Below are positions 4,036 to 46,763 of a stretch of DNA of 64,000 nucleotides, piece by piece; position 1 is the first letter of the stretch, and each line of letters begins with the position of its first letter. The notes under the pieces were generated by a model that did not search any database, had not been told where the DNA came from, and was given only the letters and a program-made list of their open reading frames with translations. The position numbers and the translations under genes are program-made. This stretch comes from Minisyncoccota bacterium (GTDB lineage Bacteria > Patescibacteriota > Minisyncoccia > Phycocordibacterales > BOKC01): NCBI GenBank assembly GCA_030583745.1, contig CP129473.1, positions 442,783-506,782 of the forward strand. Direction: 5' to 3'.

Positions 4036-4347
4036 ATGAGCTATGAAGATTTCGTAAAGGAATCGGGTTGTGTAGAAACTATTTTGAAAAGCAGTGTTGA
4101 AACTGCGAGCTGGAGCGGTGGGGTGGGGGTCTTTGTCAGTGTCGTAAAAAAAGATGGGAAATATGAAGTAAGAGCCGAGGTAGAGGACAAAGATTTATTA
4201 AACAAACACTTGGCAAATATCAACCGCGGAAGCTGGGACAACGAAGCGCCGACCATTCAAACCGCCGAAGACGAGAAAAAAGCGTTGGTTTTAGCCAAAG
4301 AAATGCTAGACGACAAGGACAATTGGCTTTCAGAAAAATATAATTAA
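4036..4347 (+). CDS. Hypothetical acidic protein
   Basis: ORF of 103 aa followed directly by a terminator. Confidence 0.4.
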   Translation: MSYEDFVKESGCVETILKSSVETASWSGGVGVFVSVVKKDGKYEVRAEVEDKDLLNKHLANINRGSWDNEAPTIQTAEDEKKALVLAKEMLDDKDNWLSEKYN

Positions 4348-4348
4348 A

Positions 4349-4377
4349 AAAACCCCTTTACGGGGTTTTTTTTAATG
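4349..4377. terminator. Bidirectional rho-independent terminator (AAAAACCCCTTTACGGGGTTTTTTTT)
   Basis: Stem CCCC/GGGG flanked by an A-run and a T-run, between convergent genes. Confidence 0.7.
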
Positions 4378-4380
4378 TCA

Positions 4381-4809
4381 TTATTTAAGCTCTACCTTGC
4401 CGCCTACTTCTTCTATCCTCTTCTTTATATCTTCCGCCTCTTCTTTCTTTGCGCCCTCTTTTAGTACTTTCGGAGCGCCATCAACAAGATCCTTGGCCTC
4501 TTTCAGCCCAAGACCCAAAACCTCTTTAACTATCTTGATTACACCGATTTTCTGGGCCCCGCCGTCTGTCAACTCAACAGTGAAAGTTGATTTCTCTTCA
4601 GACGCCCCAGCTCCCCCGCCTTGTGGAGCAACGGCTACCGCCGCCGCTGAAACACCAAACTTCTTTTCAAATAATTTTACCAGCTCATTGAGGTCCAAAA
4701 CTGACATCTTTTCAATCACCTCAACTATCACCTTAAATTTTTCGGGAACTTCCACTTGAGCTCCTTCTGTCTCTGTCGTTTTTTGTTCTTCTACTTTTTG
4801 TTCTTCCAT
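4381..4809 (-). CDS. rplL: 50S ribosomal protein L7/L12 (N-terminal extension likely)
   Basis: [24 protein letters not shown] ... [29 protein letters not shown]. Confidence 0.9.
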
Positions 4810-4829
4810 AAATTATTTGTTTTAAACTT

Positions 4830-5321
4830 TTAAGATTTTTTCTCCGCTATTTGGTTTAACGAAATCGCTAATCTCTGAATCGGAGAATTTATAAGATTAA
4901 CAAACTGCGAATAAAGAATTTTCTTTGAAGGAATCCTGGCTAGAGCTAACATTTCTTCTTTGCCCAAAATTTTGCCTTCAAAAATGCCACCGATTATTGA
5001 GAACTTTCCTTCAAATTCTTTTTGGATAGAATTTGCTTGCCTTCCGGCTTCAAGGGGTTCTACACCAAGAGCGTGAACAATGCTAAGCTCACCTTGGAAT
5101 TCTGGGGTCTCCCCAAAACCACTGTCAGCAAGCGCTTTTTTGACCAAAGTCTTTTTTGCTACCTGATACGACACACCCGCTTCCTTGAATTTCTTTCTCA
5201 AAGAGGTAGTTTCAGATACATTTAGACCATGGAAGTTGGTGAAAATCACCTCGGCACCTGAAGAGAATACATTCTTCAAGCCCTCAAGAACCTGTGATTT
5301 TTTTTGTTTTGTTATAGCCAC
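4830..5321 (-). CDS. rplJ: 50S ribosomal protein L10
   Basis: L10 fold signature; located immediately upstream of rplL. Confidence 0.85.
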   Translation of the reverse strand: MAITKQKKSQVLEGLKNVFSSGAEVIFTNFHGLNVSETTSLRKKFKEAGVSYQVAKKTLVKKALADSGFGETPEFQGELSIVHALGVEPLEAGRQANSIQKEFEGKFSIIGGIFEGKILGKEEMLALARIPSKKILYSQFVNLINSPIQRLAISLNQIAEKKS

Positions 5322-10726: not shown

Positions 10727-10870
10727 ATAACTCTAAAATTAGGGTTTGGGGTATGGGGGTTGGGGTTTAGGGTATGGGGAAATACAAAACTAAACGCTGA
10801 TCTTCTAGACCGCTCCAACCCAATTTACCTATACCCTATTGGCTGTCCCCTATTTGGCTGTCCCCTATTT
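10727..10870. repeat. Copies of a dispersed TTTAGGG/GGGTATGGGG repeat family in inverted arrangement
   Basis: ttagggtttggggtatgggggttggggtttagggtatgggg ... cctataccctattggctgtcccctatttggctgtcccctatt. Confidence 0.6.
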
Positions 10871-15991: not shown

Positions 15992-16555
15992 ATGTTGCAA
16001 TACAACGAAATCACGGAGAAAAAATTTATAGAGCTAGACGGCGAGCCGTATGAAGTTTTAAGTTCGCACGTTTTCCGAAAACAGCAAAGAAAGCCGGTCA
16101 ACGCTACTAAATTAAAAAATTTAATAACTGGCAAAGTTACCGAACGGTCTTTTCATGTTTCCGAAAAAGCCGAGGAAGCTGATCTTCAGAAAAAAGAAAT
16201 AAAATTTCTATATTTAAACAAGGGTCAATACTGGTTTTGCGACCCAGACAGTCCGCGCGACAGATTCTTTTTTGGAGAAGAAATGATTGGGCCACAGGGC
16301 AAATTTATGAAAGAAAATTCTTTGGCCGAAGCGCTCGTGTTTAATGAAAAAATTATAGGCATCAAGGTGCCGATAAAAGTTGAATTGGCAGTGAAAGAGT
16401 CTCATCCTGCAGTCAAAGGTAATACCGCCCAAGGCGCAACTAAAGAAGCTGTTTTGGAGACCGGGGCGATAGTTCAGGTGCCGCTTTTCATCAAAGAGGG
16501 CGATATTTTAAGAATCAACACCGATACCGGAGAATATGTGGAGAGAGTAAGTTAG
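15992..16555 (+). CDS. efp: Elongation factor P
   Basis: KFIELDGEPYEVLSSHVF...KPVNATKLKNLITGK...VQVPLFIKEGDILRINTDTGEYVER. Confidence 0.85.
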   Translation: MLQYNEITEKKFIELDGEPYEVLSSHVFRKQQRKPVNATKLKNLITGKVTERSFHVSEKAEEADLQKKEIKFLYLNKGQYWFCDPDSPRDRFFFGEEMIGPQGKFMKENSLAEALVFNEKIIGIKVPIKVELAVKESHPAVKGNTAQGATKEAVLETGAIVQVPLFIKEGDILRINTDTGEYVERVS

Positions 16556-16670
16556 GGTCTAGAGTTTAGCCAATAGGGTGTAGAAATTAACCTCCAGAAA
16601 TCATAGGGAGATTAGCGCAAGTAGTAGCATCCTCTATTGGCTAGTGGCTATACCCTAAACCCTATTTCTG
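16551..16670. repeat. Inverted pair of TAGGGT-TAGCCAATAGGG repeats flanking a 47-bp spacer between convergent efp and rpsR (MITE-like)
   Basis: gttagggtctagagtttagccaatagggtgtag ... cctctattggctagtggctataccctaaaccctatt. Confidence 0.6.
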
Positions 16671-16880: not shown

Positions 16881-16913
16881 GATTATAGTCAGTAGTCAGT
16901 AGTAAGTCAACTG
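16881..16913. repeat. TAGTCAGTAG repeat flanking the 4HB gene (left copy)
   Basis: gattatagtcagtagtcagtagtaagtcaactg; inverted partner at 17271-17303 and a related copy at 22786-22806. Confidence 0.5.
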
Positions 16914-17248
16914 TTCACTATTTTATTCAACATTTTCATAACTTCCTCAAGTAAGTTGTCTATTTTTACACAATCAGATTCTTTAATAAATTCAAGTCTT
17001 TTAGCTATTTTTACTTGTGTTTCCAATTCAGCGCCAGAGCCGAATGATATAAGAAAAAATCTTTTAACTTCATTTTTACCCCCACGCCTACTGCCTTCAG
17101 CAATATTAGAAGGAATAGATACAGCGGCTCTTCTCATTTGAGAAGTGAGACCATATAACTCTGATTTAGGAAATTTATTTGTTATCTGGTAGATCTCTAC
17201 TACCAATTCCATAGACTTCTGCCAAACTACAAGATTCTCGTAACCCAT
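16907..17248 (-). CDS. Four-helix-bundle protein (TIGR02436 family, historically the '23S rRNA intervening sequence protein')
   Basis: LVVWQKSMELVVEIYQITNKFPKSELYGLTSQMRRAAVSIPSNIAEGSRR...FLISFGSGAELETQV. Confidence 0.8.
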   Translation of the reverse strand: MGYENLVVWQKSMELVVEIYQITNKFPKSELYGLTSQMRRAAVSIPSNIAEGSRRGGKNEVKRFFLISFGSGAELETQVKIAKRLEFIKESDCVKIDNLLEEVMKMLNKIVNS

Positions 17249-17824: not shown

Positions 17825-18355
17825 TTATTCACTGACCACCAACTTTTCTATACTTTTATCAATCTCTTCTTCGGAAACCGGACCCAGTGCCGCTTCTTCC
17901 GCTTGTCTTGCGCTTTTCGCCTCCCTGTCCTTTCTGACTGCTAACTTGTGAGAATACAAAGTATTTTCTTTGACAGTCTCGATCAGGAGAAATCTAATAA
18001 CGTTTAAATTATTTTGGAAAGAGTTTTTGATCGCCAACATCTTCGACGGTTCAATTTCAAATTTTACCCAACCAAAGTAGGCCTGACTGTATTTTTGGTT
18101 TTTATTGTCAATTTTTTTGACCATTTCATAAGAAAGTGGTCGCAATCTGGGAAAATCTTCGGAAATAAAAATACCACCAAATTCTTCGATGGCTGTTTTC
18201 AGCGCCGAAACCTCTTCCGGCAATTTTTCTTCGGCGATAGATGGCGACAAAAGAAAACTAGCTTCGTAAACCCTTGCGTCTTGGGTTTCGGTTTCTTCTT
18301 GGTCCTCTTTTTGATCTTTTACTTCTGTTTCTTGCATAGGCAAATAGGTTAACAT
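17825..18355 (-). CDS. rpsF: 30S ribosomal protein S6 (with N- and C-terminal extensions)
   Basis: YEASFLLSPSI...LKTAIEEFGGIF...PLSYEMVKK...AYFGWVKFEIEPS; sits in an rpsF-ssb-rpsR arrangement. Confidence 0.75.
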   Translation of the reverse strand: MLTYLPMQETEVKDQKEDQEETETQDARVYEASFLLSPSIAEEKLPEEVSALKTAIEEFGGIFISEDFPRLRPLSYEMVKKIDNKNQKYSQAYFGWVKFEIEPSKMLAIKNSFQNNLNVIRFLLIETVKENTLYSHKLAVRKDREAKSARQAEEAALGPVSEEEIDKSIEKLVVSE

Positions 18356-18371
18356 AAATGCTTTAGGTTTT

Positions 18372-18412
18372 CAACCCGGATTAGGGTTTAGGGTTTAGGG
18401 TATAGCCAATAG
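18372..18412. repeat. (TTTAGGG)n-like repeat copy: attagggtttagggtttagggtatagccaatagg
   Basis: Seen directly in the sequence. Confidence 0.7.
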
Positions 18413-18689
18413 GTTAAAAAAAGACCACAGCTCACGCTGCGATCGTCATCTCACCTTGGCTCTAGCGCCAACTAGCGAGATTAGATGTCTTTCCATCCGT
18501 CAGGATACATTTCGGTGCACCTACCTAGTCTGAACGAGGTCAGACCCCTGTGCTGAATTGTCGCGCCCGTAAAAACAGGTGCCCACGTGGTCTGTTACCA
18601 TGCTAGCATAGTATGATTTTAATGTCAAGCATTTTTTGATAGTAGATACAGAGAAATTCAAAAAAATGTAAGTGGGGATTAAAGAAAAA

Positions 18690-18722
18690 GGCCCCGAGGT
18701 GAGAACCACCAAGGGGCCAGTG
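18690..18722 (-). terminator. Terminator of the GC-rich island gene (GGCCCC...GGGGCC followed by TTTTTCTTT on the minus strand)
   Basis: Seen directly in the sequence. Confidence 0.55.
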
Positions 18723-18764
18723 TGACCAGTTTGCTGAAGAATGAGCTCAATGAATTCAATGAAC

Positions 18765-19262
18765 TCAAGGAATTTCCTGCTCCAGCCGAGCTTTGCTCTG
18801 CTTTGAGGCGAGGAGAGCGGGGTTGCTCTGGTCAAAGTTGTGGCCGAGGCGGCAGTACCAGAGGTCGCTCACACGGTTGCCAAGCCAGATGAGGCACGCG
18901 ACCTTGCGGTCGTCGCCGAACCCCTGTCGAGATCCCCACAGGCAGACTGTCTTACCCTTGAACTCTTCCGGGTATGTCTCGGGATCCTTGAGCCAACCCT
19001 GGACAACCGGATGTTCGAGGTAATAGTGGCGGCCCCTGAATTTCGGATCTTTGTAGTACTCATCGAGCATGAGTCCGCTGCCTCCTCCCCTCTCCTGTGC
19101 CGGATGAAGATGGAGTTCGAAATTCCCCCGTGATTCATCCACCATGGCTTGCAATCTGCTTGCAAGCCACTCCGGCGAACGCTTGCCATTCTGGACCATC
19201 TTGGCGATAGACGCCCAAAGATCGAAGATCCGTTTCCAGACGTCAACTTTGCCACTACTCAT
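18765..19262 (-). CDS. Hypothetical protein encoded in a GC-rich (~57%) island; no recognised domain
   Basis: 165-aa ORF. Composition differs sharply from the ~38% GC flanks. Has its own terminator. Confidence 0.5.
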   Translation of the reverse strand: MSSGKVDVWKRIFDLWASIAKMVQNGKRSPEWLASRLQAMVDESRGNFELHLHPAQERGGGSGLMLDEYYKDPKFRGRHYYLEHPVVQGWLKDPETYPEEFKGKTVCLWGSRQGFGDDRKVACLIWLGNRVSDLWYCRLGHNFDQSNPALLASKQSKARLEQEIP

Positions 19263-19371
19263 GGCTTTCTCCTGTAAAGAACCCGCCCGCTACCAACAGG
19301 CGTTTCCGGATTCTGCCGGAACAGTTGCGAGAATACCTCGCTAAATCTATTTTAATCTAATCACATAAAAG

Positions 19372-20292
19372 CTATGCTGTCACGGCAAAAAATTTTAAAG
19401 CATTTTGGAGTAGGGTTTCTCGGACTTTTTCAAAATCTTCCCCCTTTATTTCAGATATCTTTTTGACGACTTCCCTGACATGCATCGGCTCATTTCTTTT
19501 ACCCCGAAACGGTTCCGGAGAAACATACGGACAATCTGTTTCGGTCATAATTCTATCGAGTGGCGTATTTTTTATAATCTCATCGTATTGCCGGGCGAAA
19601 GTTATAACTCCGGTAAACGAAAGAAAAAAGCCGGCATCTAAAATTTCTTTGGCCTCTTCCCAAGAACCGGCAAAAAAATGGAAATTGCCGGAAACTTTCG
19701 CTTCTGATTTCAATATTTCCAGAGCGTCGCGGTAAGCGGATTTTCCGGAACCAGCTTGCCCTGAACTTGCCTGCAGTGAGTTTGTCGAACCTGTTGAAGG
19801 GTTTCGAACATGGAGCATCAAAGGTTTCTTGAATTCATTAGCTAGGGCAATTTGGGCTGAAAAAGATTCGCGCTGTTTCTTTTCTGATTCCGGGGTGCAG
19901 CGATAATAATCCAACCCGCATTCCCCTATTCCTAAAACTTTTGGATGCTTTAAAAGTTCGCGATAATAATTTTCGTCTAAAACTTCGCCACGCGAAACAA
20001 ACCCCTCGACTTCGCTCGGGGCAAGTTCCTTTCCGCTACTTCCGAGTTCTTTTTCATCATGGAAAGATTTATCTGTATGAATCGGATGAATACCGACAAT
20101 TGCATAAACACCTTTTTCATATTTTTCCACCAATTCAACCGCAGATTTGGAGGTATCTTTCTGCGTGCCAACATTTATCATCCATACGCCCGCCTCCAAA
20201 GCGCGCTCTATAACTGCTTCCCGATCTTCATCATAAGCGGCAAAATTTACGTGGGCGTGGATGTCAATGTATTGGGTAGGTTTAGGATTCAT
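19372..20292 (-). CDS. tatD: TatD-family metal-dependent hydrolase (with a Ser/Gly-rich insertion)
   Basis: YIDIHAHVNF...MINVGT...GECGLDYY; immediately downstream of metG. Confidence 0.75.
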   Translation of the reverse strand: MNPKPTQYIDIHAHVNFAAYDEDREAVIERALEAGVWMINVGTQKDTSKSAVELVEKYEKGVYAIVGIHPIHTDKSFHDEKELGSSGKELAPSEVEGFVSRGEVLDENYYRELLKHPKVLGIGECGLDYYRCTPESEKKQRESFSAQIALANEFKKPLMLHVRNPSTGSTNSLQASSGQAGSGKSAYRDALEILKSEAKVSGNFHFFAGSWEEAKEILDAGFFLSFTGVITFARQYDEIIKNTPLDRIMTETDCPYVSPEPFRGKRNEPMHVREVVKKISEIKGEDFEKVRETLLQNALKFFAVTA

Positions 20293-20295
20293 GAA

Positions 20296-21729
20296 TTAAT
20301 CTTTTCTGGGAAATAGCGAATTTTTGGGCATTTTGTTTTGCTTTATTAAATCCATAATCTTTTCAGCTGTTTTGGGTATAAATGGTTGGAGGTAGAATCC
20401 TATAATATACAGTTCTGATACAAGTTCTTGAATAATATGGTTACCAATTTCTGGATTAGATTTAACAACTTTAAATGGCTGCTCCTTTTGAATCTTTCTA
20501 TCAAGTTTTTGAATCTTGGAAAATATAAAATTCATCGCTTCACCTATTTCAAACCTGTTGAATACGTCAATCATATGTTGAGGATAATTTTGTTTATATA
20601 ATGAGGTTAAAACATCATTATCTACAGCCATTTTCATAATCCTAGAAACCAAATTTCCTAGTCCATTTGCTAGGTCAGCATTATAAGCGGTCTTGAATTT
20701 TTCAAGAGTAAATTCGCTATCTTCAAAAGAGTTTACGTGCCGCGCCAAATAAAAACGCAAGGCATCTGTGCCGTACTCTTCAATAATTTCAATCGGGTCA
20801 ACCGTATTCCCTAAACTTTTGCTCATTTTTACTCCGCCTTCGCCCAAAATAAAGCCATTGATAATAATTTGCTCGGACGTCTGAATTCCGGCTGACATAA
20901 GCATTGCTTGCCACATTGCCGACTGCTGACGGAGATTGTCTTTGCCGGCATATTGAGTTACCGGCCACCATTTCTTAAAATTTTCTTCATCTTCAGACCA
21001 GCCGATCGCTGAAATGTAGTTTACCAACGCGTCAAACCAAACATACATTACATGTTCCGAATCGTCCGGCACCTCTACACCCCACGGCATTTTTTCTTTA
21101 AGGCGCGAAATACTGAAATCTTCCAATCCCCTTTCAACGAATCTTTTAATTTCATTAAAACGGAAATTTGGCACCACAAAATCCGGATTTTTTTCATAAA
21201 ATTCCAAAAGCGGTTTTTGATATTTAGAAAAACGGAAAAAATAGTTTTCTTCTTCAAGAATCTCAATACTTAAATTCGGATGATCCGGACATTTTCCATC
21301 AACCAATTCTGATTCAGTCTTTTCCAGCTCACAACCAACACAATATTTAACGCTGTAATTTTTTTTATAAATATCGCCGTTTTTCTGGCAAACACGCCAA
21401 AATTCTTGAGCCGCGACAATATGCTCCGGATCAGTCGTCCGAATAAAATTTAAATCAGGAAGCATGCCGAGTTGCCGGACAAAATTTTTAAACTTTTCAG
21501 CATACTCATCAACATAAACTTGTGGGTCTTTTCCTTGTTCTTGTGCTTTCCGATAAATTTTTAATCCGTGCTCATCGGTGCCGGTATTAAAAAAAACTTC
21601 AAAACCCATAAGTTTTTTATATCGGGCAATAATATCGGCTCTGACAAATTCCAAAGCATGCCCGAGATGGGGCTCGGCGTTCACATAAGGCAAGGTGGTG
21701 GTAATGTAAAAAGTTTTTTTCTGGTTCAC
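20296..21729 (-). CDS. metG: Methionyl-tRNA synthetase (short form)
   Basis: PYVNAEPHLGHALE; zinc knuckles CVGCELEKTESELVDGKCPDH; KMSKSLGN. Confidence 0.9.
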   Translation of the reverse strand: MNQKKTFYITTTLPYVNAEPHLGHALEFVRADIIARYKKLMGFEVFFNTGTDEHGLKIYRKAQEQGKDPQVYVDEYAEKFKNFVRQLGMLPDLNFIRTTDPEHIVAAQEFWRVCQKNGDIYKKNYSVKYCVGCELEKTESELVDGKCPDHPNLSIEILEEENYFFRFSKYQKPLLEFYEKNPDFVVPNFRFNEIKRFVERGLEDFSISRLKEKMPWGVEVPDDSEHVMYVWFDALVNYISAIGWSEDEENFKKWWPVTQYAGKDNLRQQSAMWQAMLMSAGIQTSEQIIINGFILGEGGVKMSKSLGNTVDPIEIIEEYGTDALRFYLARHVNSFEDSEFTLEKFKTAYNADLANGLGNLVSRIMKMAVDNDVLTSLYKQNYPQHMIDVFNRFEIGEAMNFIFSKIQKLDRKIQKEQPFKVVKSNPEIGNHIIQELVSELYIIGFYLQPFIPKTAEKIMDLIKQNKMPKNSLFPRKD

Positions 21730-46148: not shown

Positions 46149-46763
46149 TCAGTTAGGAGTCCTGACGATGAAGTAGTTGCCGACGCCGTAGACCTGCGGC
46201 TGATGAGGTTCCGACCGCTTCTCTGTCTCGAGAAGGTGCAGATGGTAGCCGTCTTTTTTATCACAGATTGAGACGGCAAGAATTTCATCGTTATTCCCGG
46301 TAACGAAGAAGTGCCACCAAAATCCGGAAGGAAGTGCTGGCAATTTGTTTTCCCCCACGATCCAGCGAATCTGTCGGGAAGACAAAACCAGTTTCTGTCT
46401 GATGTGCCTCTCACCTCCGGCTGCCCGGACAATGGCTTGCATGTTTAGATTGACCGTCAAACGGCGCGCTTCCGCTCTTGTTGCCTCCGTAGCAACATTT
46501 GGCACACCAAACCGGTCAATTCCCGAAGCCTGCTTGAACGGAGAACTTCGGTCTTCTTCCTTGACCAAGAACGGGTGGGTGTCCACCAATTCAAGTGGCG
46601 GGATCTCGAACGATCCCTGCACCTTCTGGAGCGCCCGAAAACTTCGCCTCGACATGATCGGCAACGCCAACCTATTGTCAGAATCCATCTCGCCCCCTTC
46701 TGCCGGTTTCCGGCTGAAATTTCCACGAGCCAGCACAAAACAGTCCGGATAAAATTTTATCAA
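46149..46763 (-). CDS. Hypothetical protein in GC-rich (~53%) island 3
   Basis: 204-aa ORF; composition atypical for this window; own terminator. Confidence 0.5.
   Translation of the reverse strand: MIKFYPDCFVLARGNFSRKPAEGGEMDSDNRLALPIMSRRSFRALQKVQGSFEIPPLELVDTHPFLVKEEDRSSPFKQASGIDRFGVPNVATEATRAEARRLTVNLNMQAIVRAAGGERHIRQKLVLSSRQIRWIVGENKLPALPSGFWWHFFVTGNNDEILAVSICDKKDGYHLHLLETEKRSEPHQPQVYGVGNYFIVRTPN

Follow-up and report, generated by a model that had tools for sequence, protein, structure and literature searches.

The window analysed here (the whole 64-kb stretch of DNA, with 40.6% GC) carries between tatD and rpsF a single inserted gene, ORF165, whose exact protein record is QY304_02390 (WKZ26226.1) and whose neighbours were identified by Pfam as ribosomal protein S6 (rpsF) and TatD. 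The initial annotation had described at this position a GC-rich island (18420-19370) with one 165-aa ORF on the minus strand (18765..19262), no recognisable domain and its own rho-independent terminator. The ORF, its location and the terminator were all found as described, the last as a GGCCCC (18718-18713)/GGGGCC (18695-18690) stem followed by TTTTTCTTT. The sharp GC jump was also confirmed, but the high-GC part extends from about 18700 to 19300: ORF165 has 56.4% GC, with a maximum of 61.5% at 18800-18999 (200-nt windows), and the whole span 18420-19370 has only 51.4% because 18420-18690 has 44.6%. In the codon-usage comparison recommended at that stage, ORF165 had a GC3 of 67.5% versus 33-42% in the five neighbour genes rpsR, ssb, rpsF, tatD and metG. 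The GC excess is greatest at synonymous sites, and adenine occupies 14% of third positions in ORF165 compared with 28-36% in the neighbour genes. The features of the locus, all on the minus strand, are as follows.

18512..19387, minus: inserted segment, delimited by BLAST against the closest relative without the island
19354..19383, minus: promoter-like site GTGACA-18-TAGATT, with the -35 element overlapping the tatD stop codon
19263..19345, minus: conserved structured 5' leader of ~85 nt, with nucleotide-level conservation and three hairpins
18765..19262, minus: ORF165 protein-coding gene, supported by dN/dS, profile relatives and an AF2 model
19128..19262, minus: N-terminal two-helix domain (codons 1-45), from the AF2 model and alignments
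18804..19127, minus: conserved core (codons 46-153), with a weak, tentative likeness to C-type lectin folds
18813..18947, minus: variable-repeat equivalent (codons ~106-150), from a template-repeat profile match
18807..18824, minus: GC-rich, IMH-like terminal stretch of the variable repeat (AACCCCGCTCTCCTCGCC), conserved with the repeats of relatives
18742..18767, minus: overlapping palindrome GAGTTCATTGAATTCATTGAGCTC at the ORF165 stop codon
18680..18718, minus: intrinsic terminator of ORF165, GGCCCC...GGGGCC plus a T-run
18600..18628, minus: further promoter-like site within the 3' end of the insert, TTGACA-17-(TG)cTAGCAT
18423..18592, minus: candidate transcript of ~170 nt (promoter 18628..18600, terminator 18444..18423, fold z = -2.5)

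A strain-variable insertion between tatD and rpsF

Relatives with an empty site were found through their S6 protein. The closest of these (L018; S6 99% identical, DNA 96%) has a tatD-rpsF spacer of 184 bp from which the island is absent, and the spacers of L013 (S6 86% identical, 224 bp) and L014 (S6 69% identical, 156 bp) are likewise island-free. BLAST alignment placed the junctions at window positions 18511 and 19388, corresponding to L018 positions 1863 and 1835, respectively. Metagenomes queried with a 24-nt pattern from the 5' leader yielded two independent contigs with flanks 98-100% identical to the window, L008 covering both junctions and L010 the one on the rpsF side, and a 95%-identical variant of ORF165 was present in a Logan contig. 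The island is a genuine insertion that varies between strains.

The decayed gene initially suspected at 18420-18690 did not hold. Positions 18423-18511 comprise two hairpins and a terminator (18444..18423) and represent the native 3' end of tatD and not a gene remnant, because L018 has the same stretch directly after tatD. The second promoter-like site (18600-18628) resembles the promoter TTGACAT..TATGCTACCAT that follows tatD in L013, and the candidate transcript that it would initiate (18423-18592) matched no Rfam family (Rfam 15). In L013 (3447-3590), a similar promoter drives another, unlike GC-rich unit, about 120 nt long and also without an Rfam match. Intergenic spacers of the window, often just after terminators, contain recurrent TTTAGGG-type heptamer runs (CCCTAAACCCTATA..GGCTAT) at 10740-10776, 16553-16568, 16649-16664, 18382-18404, 31789-31804 and 34992-35035. 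Such runs were also seen at L001:10565-10580 and upstream of rpsF in L013 and L018, and the pattern gave 12 matches at up to 3 mismatches versus 0.4 expected. At 58019-58144 of the window, a 63-nt unit is tandemly duplicated with 97% identity beside tRNA-Ser (58149-58235).

The -35 element of the ORF165 promoter-like site lies inside the 3' end of tatD, which reads TTGACA at this point in L013 and L016, and homologous cassettes have TTGACA or TTGACT together with TATAAT as promoter elements. The leader that follows contains three hairpins, GCGAG/CTCGC, UCCGG-CAGAAU-CCGGA and CGCCUG-UUGGUAG-CGGGCG, and 3' of these a UUCUUU predicted to pair with the AGGAGA Shine-Dalgarno sequence. It is kept at the nucleotide level in L001, L002, L007, L019 and L008. 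Across the aligned leaders, standard pairs were found in 94.7% of cells and six pairs were changed on both sides, a count matched by 0 of 500 shuffles and by no slid control. The minimum-free-energy fold sequesters the AGGAGA sequence (z = -2.3), and the leader probably acts as a gate on translation, keeping the ribosome-binding site concealed. The leader motif occurs once in the window. It belongs to no Rfam family (Rfam 15; no credible match at E <= 10 over 18300-19450), and related loci and spacers gave no Rfam match at E <= 1. The idea that the leader might also precede other cargo genes was discarded after a metagenome scan returned the ORF165 family alone.

Phage morons are units of promoter, gene and terminator with deviant base composition, inserted between genes. 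ORF165 has the same layout of an autonomous cassette, with its own sigma-70-like promoter, an intrinsic terminator, deviant GC and a position between conserved genes that is empty in some close relatives and occupied in others. Unlike morons, it belongs to a bacterial chromosome and is not flanked by phage genes, and a scan of viral contigs revealed no relative; the likeness is one of form, by analogy, and not of membership.

The ORF165 family and its link to diversity-generating retroelements

The first search returned four relatives, all on contigs of roughly 40-49% GC; three of the four were long enough for gene context, and these were of candidate-phyla-radiation (CPR; Patescibacteria) type and had the gene at different loci. 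Homologues are 161-165 aa long, and neither the first relatives nor ORF165 matched Pfam, PHROGs, PADLOC or a PDB sequence profile. Pairwise dN/dS among homologues was 0.3-0.45 overall, with dS saturated, and 0.1-0.25 in the N-terminal 45 codons. A profile of the first relatives, searched against 1.84 billion representative proteins, identified 539 relatives sharing the C-terminal ~110 residues. This domain stands alone, behind varied N-termini, or as tandem copies in larger proteins. Three to eight copies were seen within the large proteins P0193 (1932 aa), P0139, P0202, P0218 and P0132, one tandem-copy protein also having WD40 repeats and a protein kinase domain. No Pfam domain was found in the shared region of the 539 relatives, whose existing names are "hypothetical protein" from Patescibacteria. 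All relatives that were named or inspected for context came from Patescibacteria-type genomes, except for one short contig binned as Micrarchaeota, and the viral contigs scanned contained no member. The absence of a recognisable domain, noted at first, holds for the libraries, but the profile search and genomic context identify a variable protein of diversity-generating retroelements (DGRs).

The AF2 model of ORF165 reached a pLDDT of 91.9; a first model, built from 5 sequences, had a pLDDT of 62 and was left out of the fold search. The two-helix N-terminal domain is specific to the "MSSG..." subfamily, in which it co-occurs with the leader. Foldseek returned no significant match for the model in PDB or BFVD, and any likeness of ORF165 to Mtd (1YU0) and TvpA (2Y3C), two DGR variable proteins of known structure with a C-type lectin fold, is weak.

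In L024, the last 132 nt of the family gene (4452-4583) recur as a direct repeat further downstream (4913-5044). Every difference in the alignment of this variable repeat with its template repeat falls at a template-repeat adenine, and the template repeat is followed by a bAvd-like gene and then by an RVT_1 reverse transcriptase; the L024 locus is a complete DGR. L007, the most telling locus because of its ORF165-type leader and 49%-identical protein, has a template repeat about 330 nt downstream; per 50 nt, this repeat pair has 6-9 mismatches at adenines and none elsewhere. An adenine-tolerant scan revealed a template repeat downstream of the L022 family member as well, with a few non-adenine mismatches. 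These were the only 3 of the 10 family loci examined to have a template repeat, which in all three covers the last ~45 codons of the family gene. A profile of the three template repeats matched the window solely at 18808-18972 (E = 2.8e-7), and codons ~106-150 of ORF165 were therefore assigned as the variable-repeat equivalent. The GC-rich end of this segment is IMH-like; in L007, L022 and L024, both repeats carry it as ..AAYAACCC(G/C)G..CTCCTCGCA. The palindrome at the stop codon (18742-18767) may be the counterpart of the inverted repeat found downstream of IMH; this region has a 9-nt indel between the window copy and L008.

Directly 5' of the template repeat, the three loci share a conserved non-coding segment of ~230 nt (L007:960-1200, L022:4560-4830, L024:4672-4912) with the blocks GGYAGTAGGKGAATA...CCGAAACCARTATCC...AAAAATGAAG...GCAGTGGCAC, which is probably part of the DGR RNA. 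The stretch 18420-18640 of the window was considered as a decayed form of this segment and rejected, as MAFFT gave scattered matches only and nhmmer none.

The DGRs of CPR bacteria constitute a clade of their own (PMC8144416; PMC5758913), and their targets, which lack transmembrane or recognisable domains, probably hold new C-type lectin variants (PMC8144416). They usually have one adjacent target, remote targets having been seen only in other lineages (Wu et al., PMC5758913). Their variable proteins (clade 2, Roux et al. 2021; "CPR set", Wu et al. 2018) are the closest system to ORF165, which is similarly small, without a transmembrane segment or known domain, and has a C-terminal variable repeat ending in a conserved GC-rich IMH-like stretch; its relatives have an adenine-specific template repeat, Avd and a reverse transcriptase. 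Unlike these targets, ORF165 has neither a template repeat nor a reverse transcriptase in the 64 kb searched, varies between strains by replacement of the whole allele, and is preceded by a conserved structured 5' leader of a kind not described in the DGR surveys (PMC8144416, PMC5758913). The family profile, the repeat pairs of relatives with adenine-templated C-terminal variable repeats, and the template-repeat profile match together identify ORF165, at the level of sequence, as a DGR variable-protein gene of a CPR-type family.

Allele replacement and the state of this copy

On comparison of the window with L008, identity was seen to drop within the gene, from about 99% to 43-77%, with sharp borders, one after codon 4-5 and the other at CCCGCTCTCCTCGC near codon 150. 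The IMH-like end (18807-18824) is the 3' border of the allele swap. The two alleles, both GC-rich, are 54% identical as proteins and differ over the whole gene body, with indels, and in P0304 a window-type body is joined to an L008-type tail. Judging from these sharp borders and from the P0304 mosaic, the locus appears to be swapped by recombination within the conserved leader and at the IMH-like end. Blocks at 19701-19800, 19901-20000 and 20301-21000 also drop to 40-76% identity with L008. They lie in tatD and in the 3' half of metG, with 98-100% identity on either side, and mosaic recombination with diverged relatives is therefore frequent and general in the population.

In the more distant relatives L016 and L017, the orthologous tatD-rpsF spacer contains a DGR-type reverse transcriptase gene (4038-4976); its product shares 59-62% identity with that of L024, and no accompanying template repeat could be found. 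The spacer is an insertion hot spot. In the window, a 113-aa four-helix-bundle protein of the 23S-rRNA-IVP/bAvd-like type is encoded between ssb and rpsR (16907-17248, minus strand), 1.5 kb from ORF165 (Pfam; 33.6% GC). It shares a superfamily with the DGR accessory protein Avd, and its gene is present in L018 and absent in L014, L016 and L017. Some CPR DGRs are known to have ribosomal protein genes between their parts (Wu et al., PMC5758913). The reverse transcriptase in the L016/L017 spacer and the bAvd-like gene in the window and L018 fit a DGR that would once have resided around the rpsF operon and decayed differentially.

An adenine-tolerant scan of the 64-kb window (adenine mismatches free, at most 6 others per 60 nt), self-BLAST and a repeat search all failed to show a template repeat for ORF165, and tblastn with two DGR reverse transcriptases as queries detected no such enzyme there. 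The variable-repeat segment has one extra codon and a W-to-F change, both in the scaffold and the latter at a conserved residue, and that of P0304, 95% identical overall, is identical to it. Hypervariation confined to the variable repeat, the pattern expected of a DGR target among otherwise identical copies, was seen in neither P0304 nor L008. Because template repeat and reverse transcriptase are missing from the 64 kb searched (of a genome of about 692 kb), and because of the scaffold changes and the identical P0304 repeat, ORF165 is most likely an orphaned DGR target; the scaffold changes and the P0304 repeat fit an orphan and also mean that no diversification was observed. Active diversification in trans, by a DGR located outside the window, is a real if clearly lesser possibility. 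The IMH-like end and the palindrome just downstream are intact, the bAvd-like gene is close by, and non-adjacent and remote targets are documented for some DGRs (PMC5758913), but the unchanged repeat of P0304, the departures of the segment from the family (an indel and scaffold changes not at adenines), and the negative searches of the window all weigh against it.

Replacement of a whole allele between near-identical strains, and the presence of the gene at different insertion sites in different genomes, would also suit a polymorphic conflict or immunity-type gene (anti-phage or inter-strain) that is swapped under frequency-dependent selection alone and linked to DGRs only incidentally. We consider this unlikely, given that nothing matched in PADLOC or PHROGs and that the three DGR-linked members and the template-repeat profile match explain the C-terminal variability better. 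The conflict-gene and DGR-target readings are not mutually exclusive.

Base composition, origin and significance

In 9 of the 10 loci, the family gene is 6-19 points richer in GC than its surroundings, with a GC3 of 62-82% in hosts of 39-51% GC, and it has 52-61% GC whether the host has 39% or 51%. GC-richness is therefore a trait of the family and not of a donor. The reverse transcriptase gene or template-repeat region of L024, L022 and L016 is near host composition. The GC peak of the island is the variable-repeat segment of ORF165 (64% GC, GC3 84%), the rest of the gene having about 53% GC and a GC3 of about 62%. DGR repeats have GC-rich constant flanks around the mutagenised stretch (PMC5758913), a design that the peak fits, and the peak would also be expected if scaffold codons of such repeats avoid adenine. 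Adenine avoidance does not account for the GC excess elsewhere in the gene, of which recombination-associated GC bias and continual exchange among GC-richer Patescibacteria are both possible causes.

The horizontal acquisition proposed initially stands insofar as the segment is foreign to its site, the spacer being empty in L018, L013 and L014; no high-GC or host donor was found. Recent acquisition from a high-GC non-CPR organism (e.g. a host bacterium), with the gene GC-rich because its donor is, would accord with the sharp GC3 jump and the presence/absence polymorphism. This origin is nonetheless very improbable: no relative was traced to a high-GC or clearly non-CPR genome (the 539 matches carry no taxonomy), the GC content of the gene is kept across hosts from 39% to 51%, and among CPR genomes it moves together with its promoter, leader and terminator. 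An assembly chimera, raised in the initial annotation, or a non-coding structured RNA in place of a gene has nothing in its favour beyond the compositional break and the missing library matches, and can be dismissed as negligible because the junctions are carried by independent assemblies (both in L008, the rpsF-side one in L010, at 98-100% identity) and the surplus of synonymous relative to non-synonymous substitutions, together with the conserved length of the ORF, reflects coding constraint.

The window does contain three such islands, the other two lying at 35475-37200 and 46149-46763 (minus), with a GC3 of 60-70%. They have the anatomy of the first, namely an AT-rich promoter, at least one GC-rich ORFan gene and a terminator, and their 293-aa and 196-aa proteins start with hydrophobic, signal-like segments. 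Neither island has a Pfam match, a template/variable repeat pair or a copy of the ORF165 leader, and as candidates for DGR targets or leader carriers they found no support in either respect. Compositional islands in small CPR genomes need not imply a foreign high-GC donor or misassembly.

The explanation that we favour, with moderate confidence, is that ORF165 is a CPR DGR target gene, inserted as a standalone promoter-leader-gene-terminator cassette, orphaned, and swapped between alleles. The last ~45 codons of its domain of ~110 aa would correspond to the segment that a DGR rewrites at template adenines, and the cassette would have entered the tatD-rpsF spacer, which in a more distantly related genome holds a DGR reverse transcriptase. 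The orphaned target would still encode a putative cytoplasmic ligand-binding protein that now varies by whole-allele replacement between strains and not by retro-mutagenesis, its translation being gated by a leader that hides the ribosome-binding site. A broader proposal, which we advance only tentatively, is that orphaned CPR DGR targets persist and spread as autonomous cassettes that are swapped at the leader and the IMH-like end, gated by the leader and marked by high GC3.

The class of DGR targets is already known, and what is modestly new here is the conserved leader RNA, the family-wide GC3 signature and the cassette-style replacement of alleles. A GC-rich ORFan island is identified as the variable-protein gene of a retroelement system, and a family of ~540 members without a Pfam entry is now open to annotation. 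The rise in GC3 with depletion of third-position adenine, peaking in the variable repeat, could serve to flag DGR targets without their retroelement, and the conserved leader RNA is a lead for testing. If the broader proposal is correct, the three-hairpin leader would be a previously undescribed RNA gating cassette expression, and the strong family-wide GC3 enrichment would be the trace left by adenine avoidance, by recombination or by the two together. Recombination would then provide a second route, independent of reverse transcriptase, to diversify the same binding scaffold of a system believed to aid ultra-small symbiotic bacteria in adjusting to their partners.
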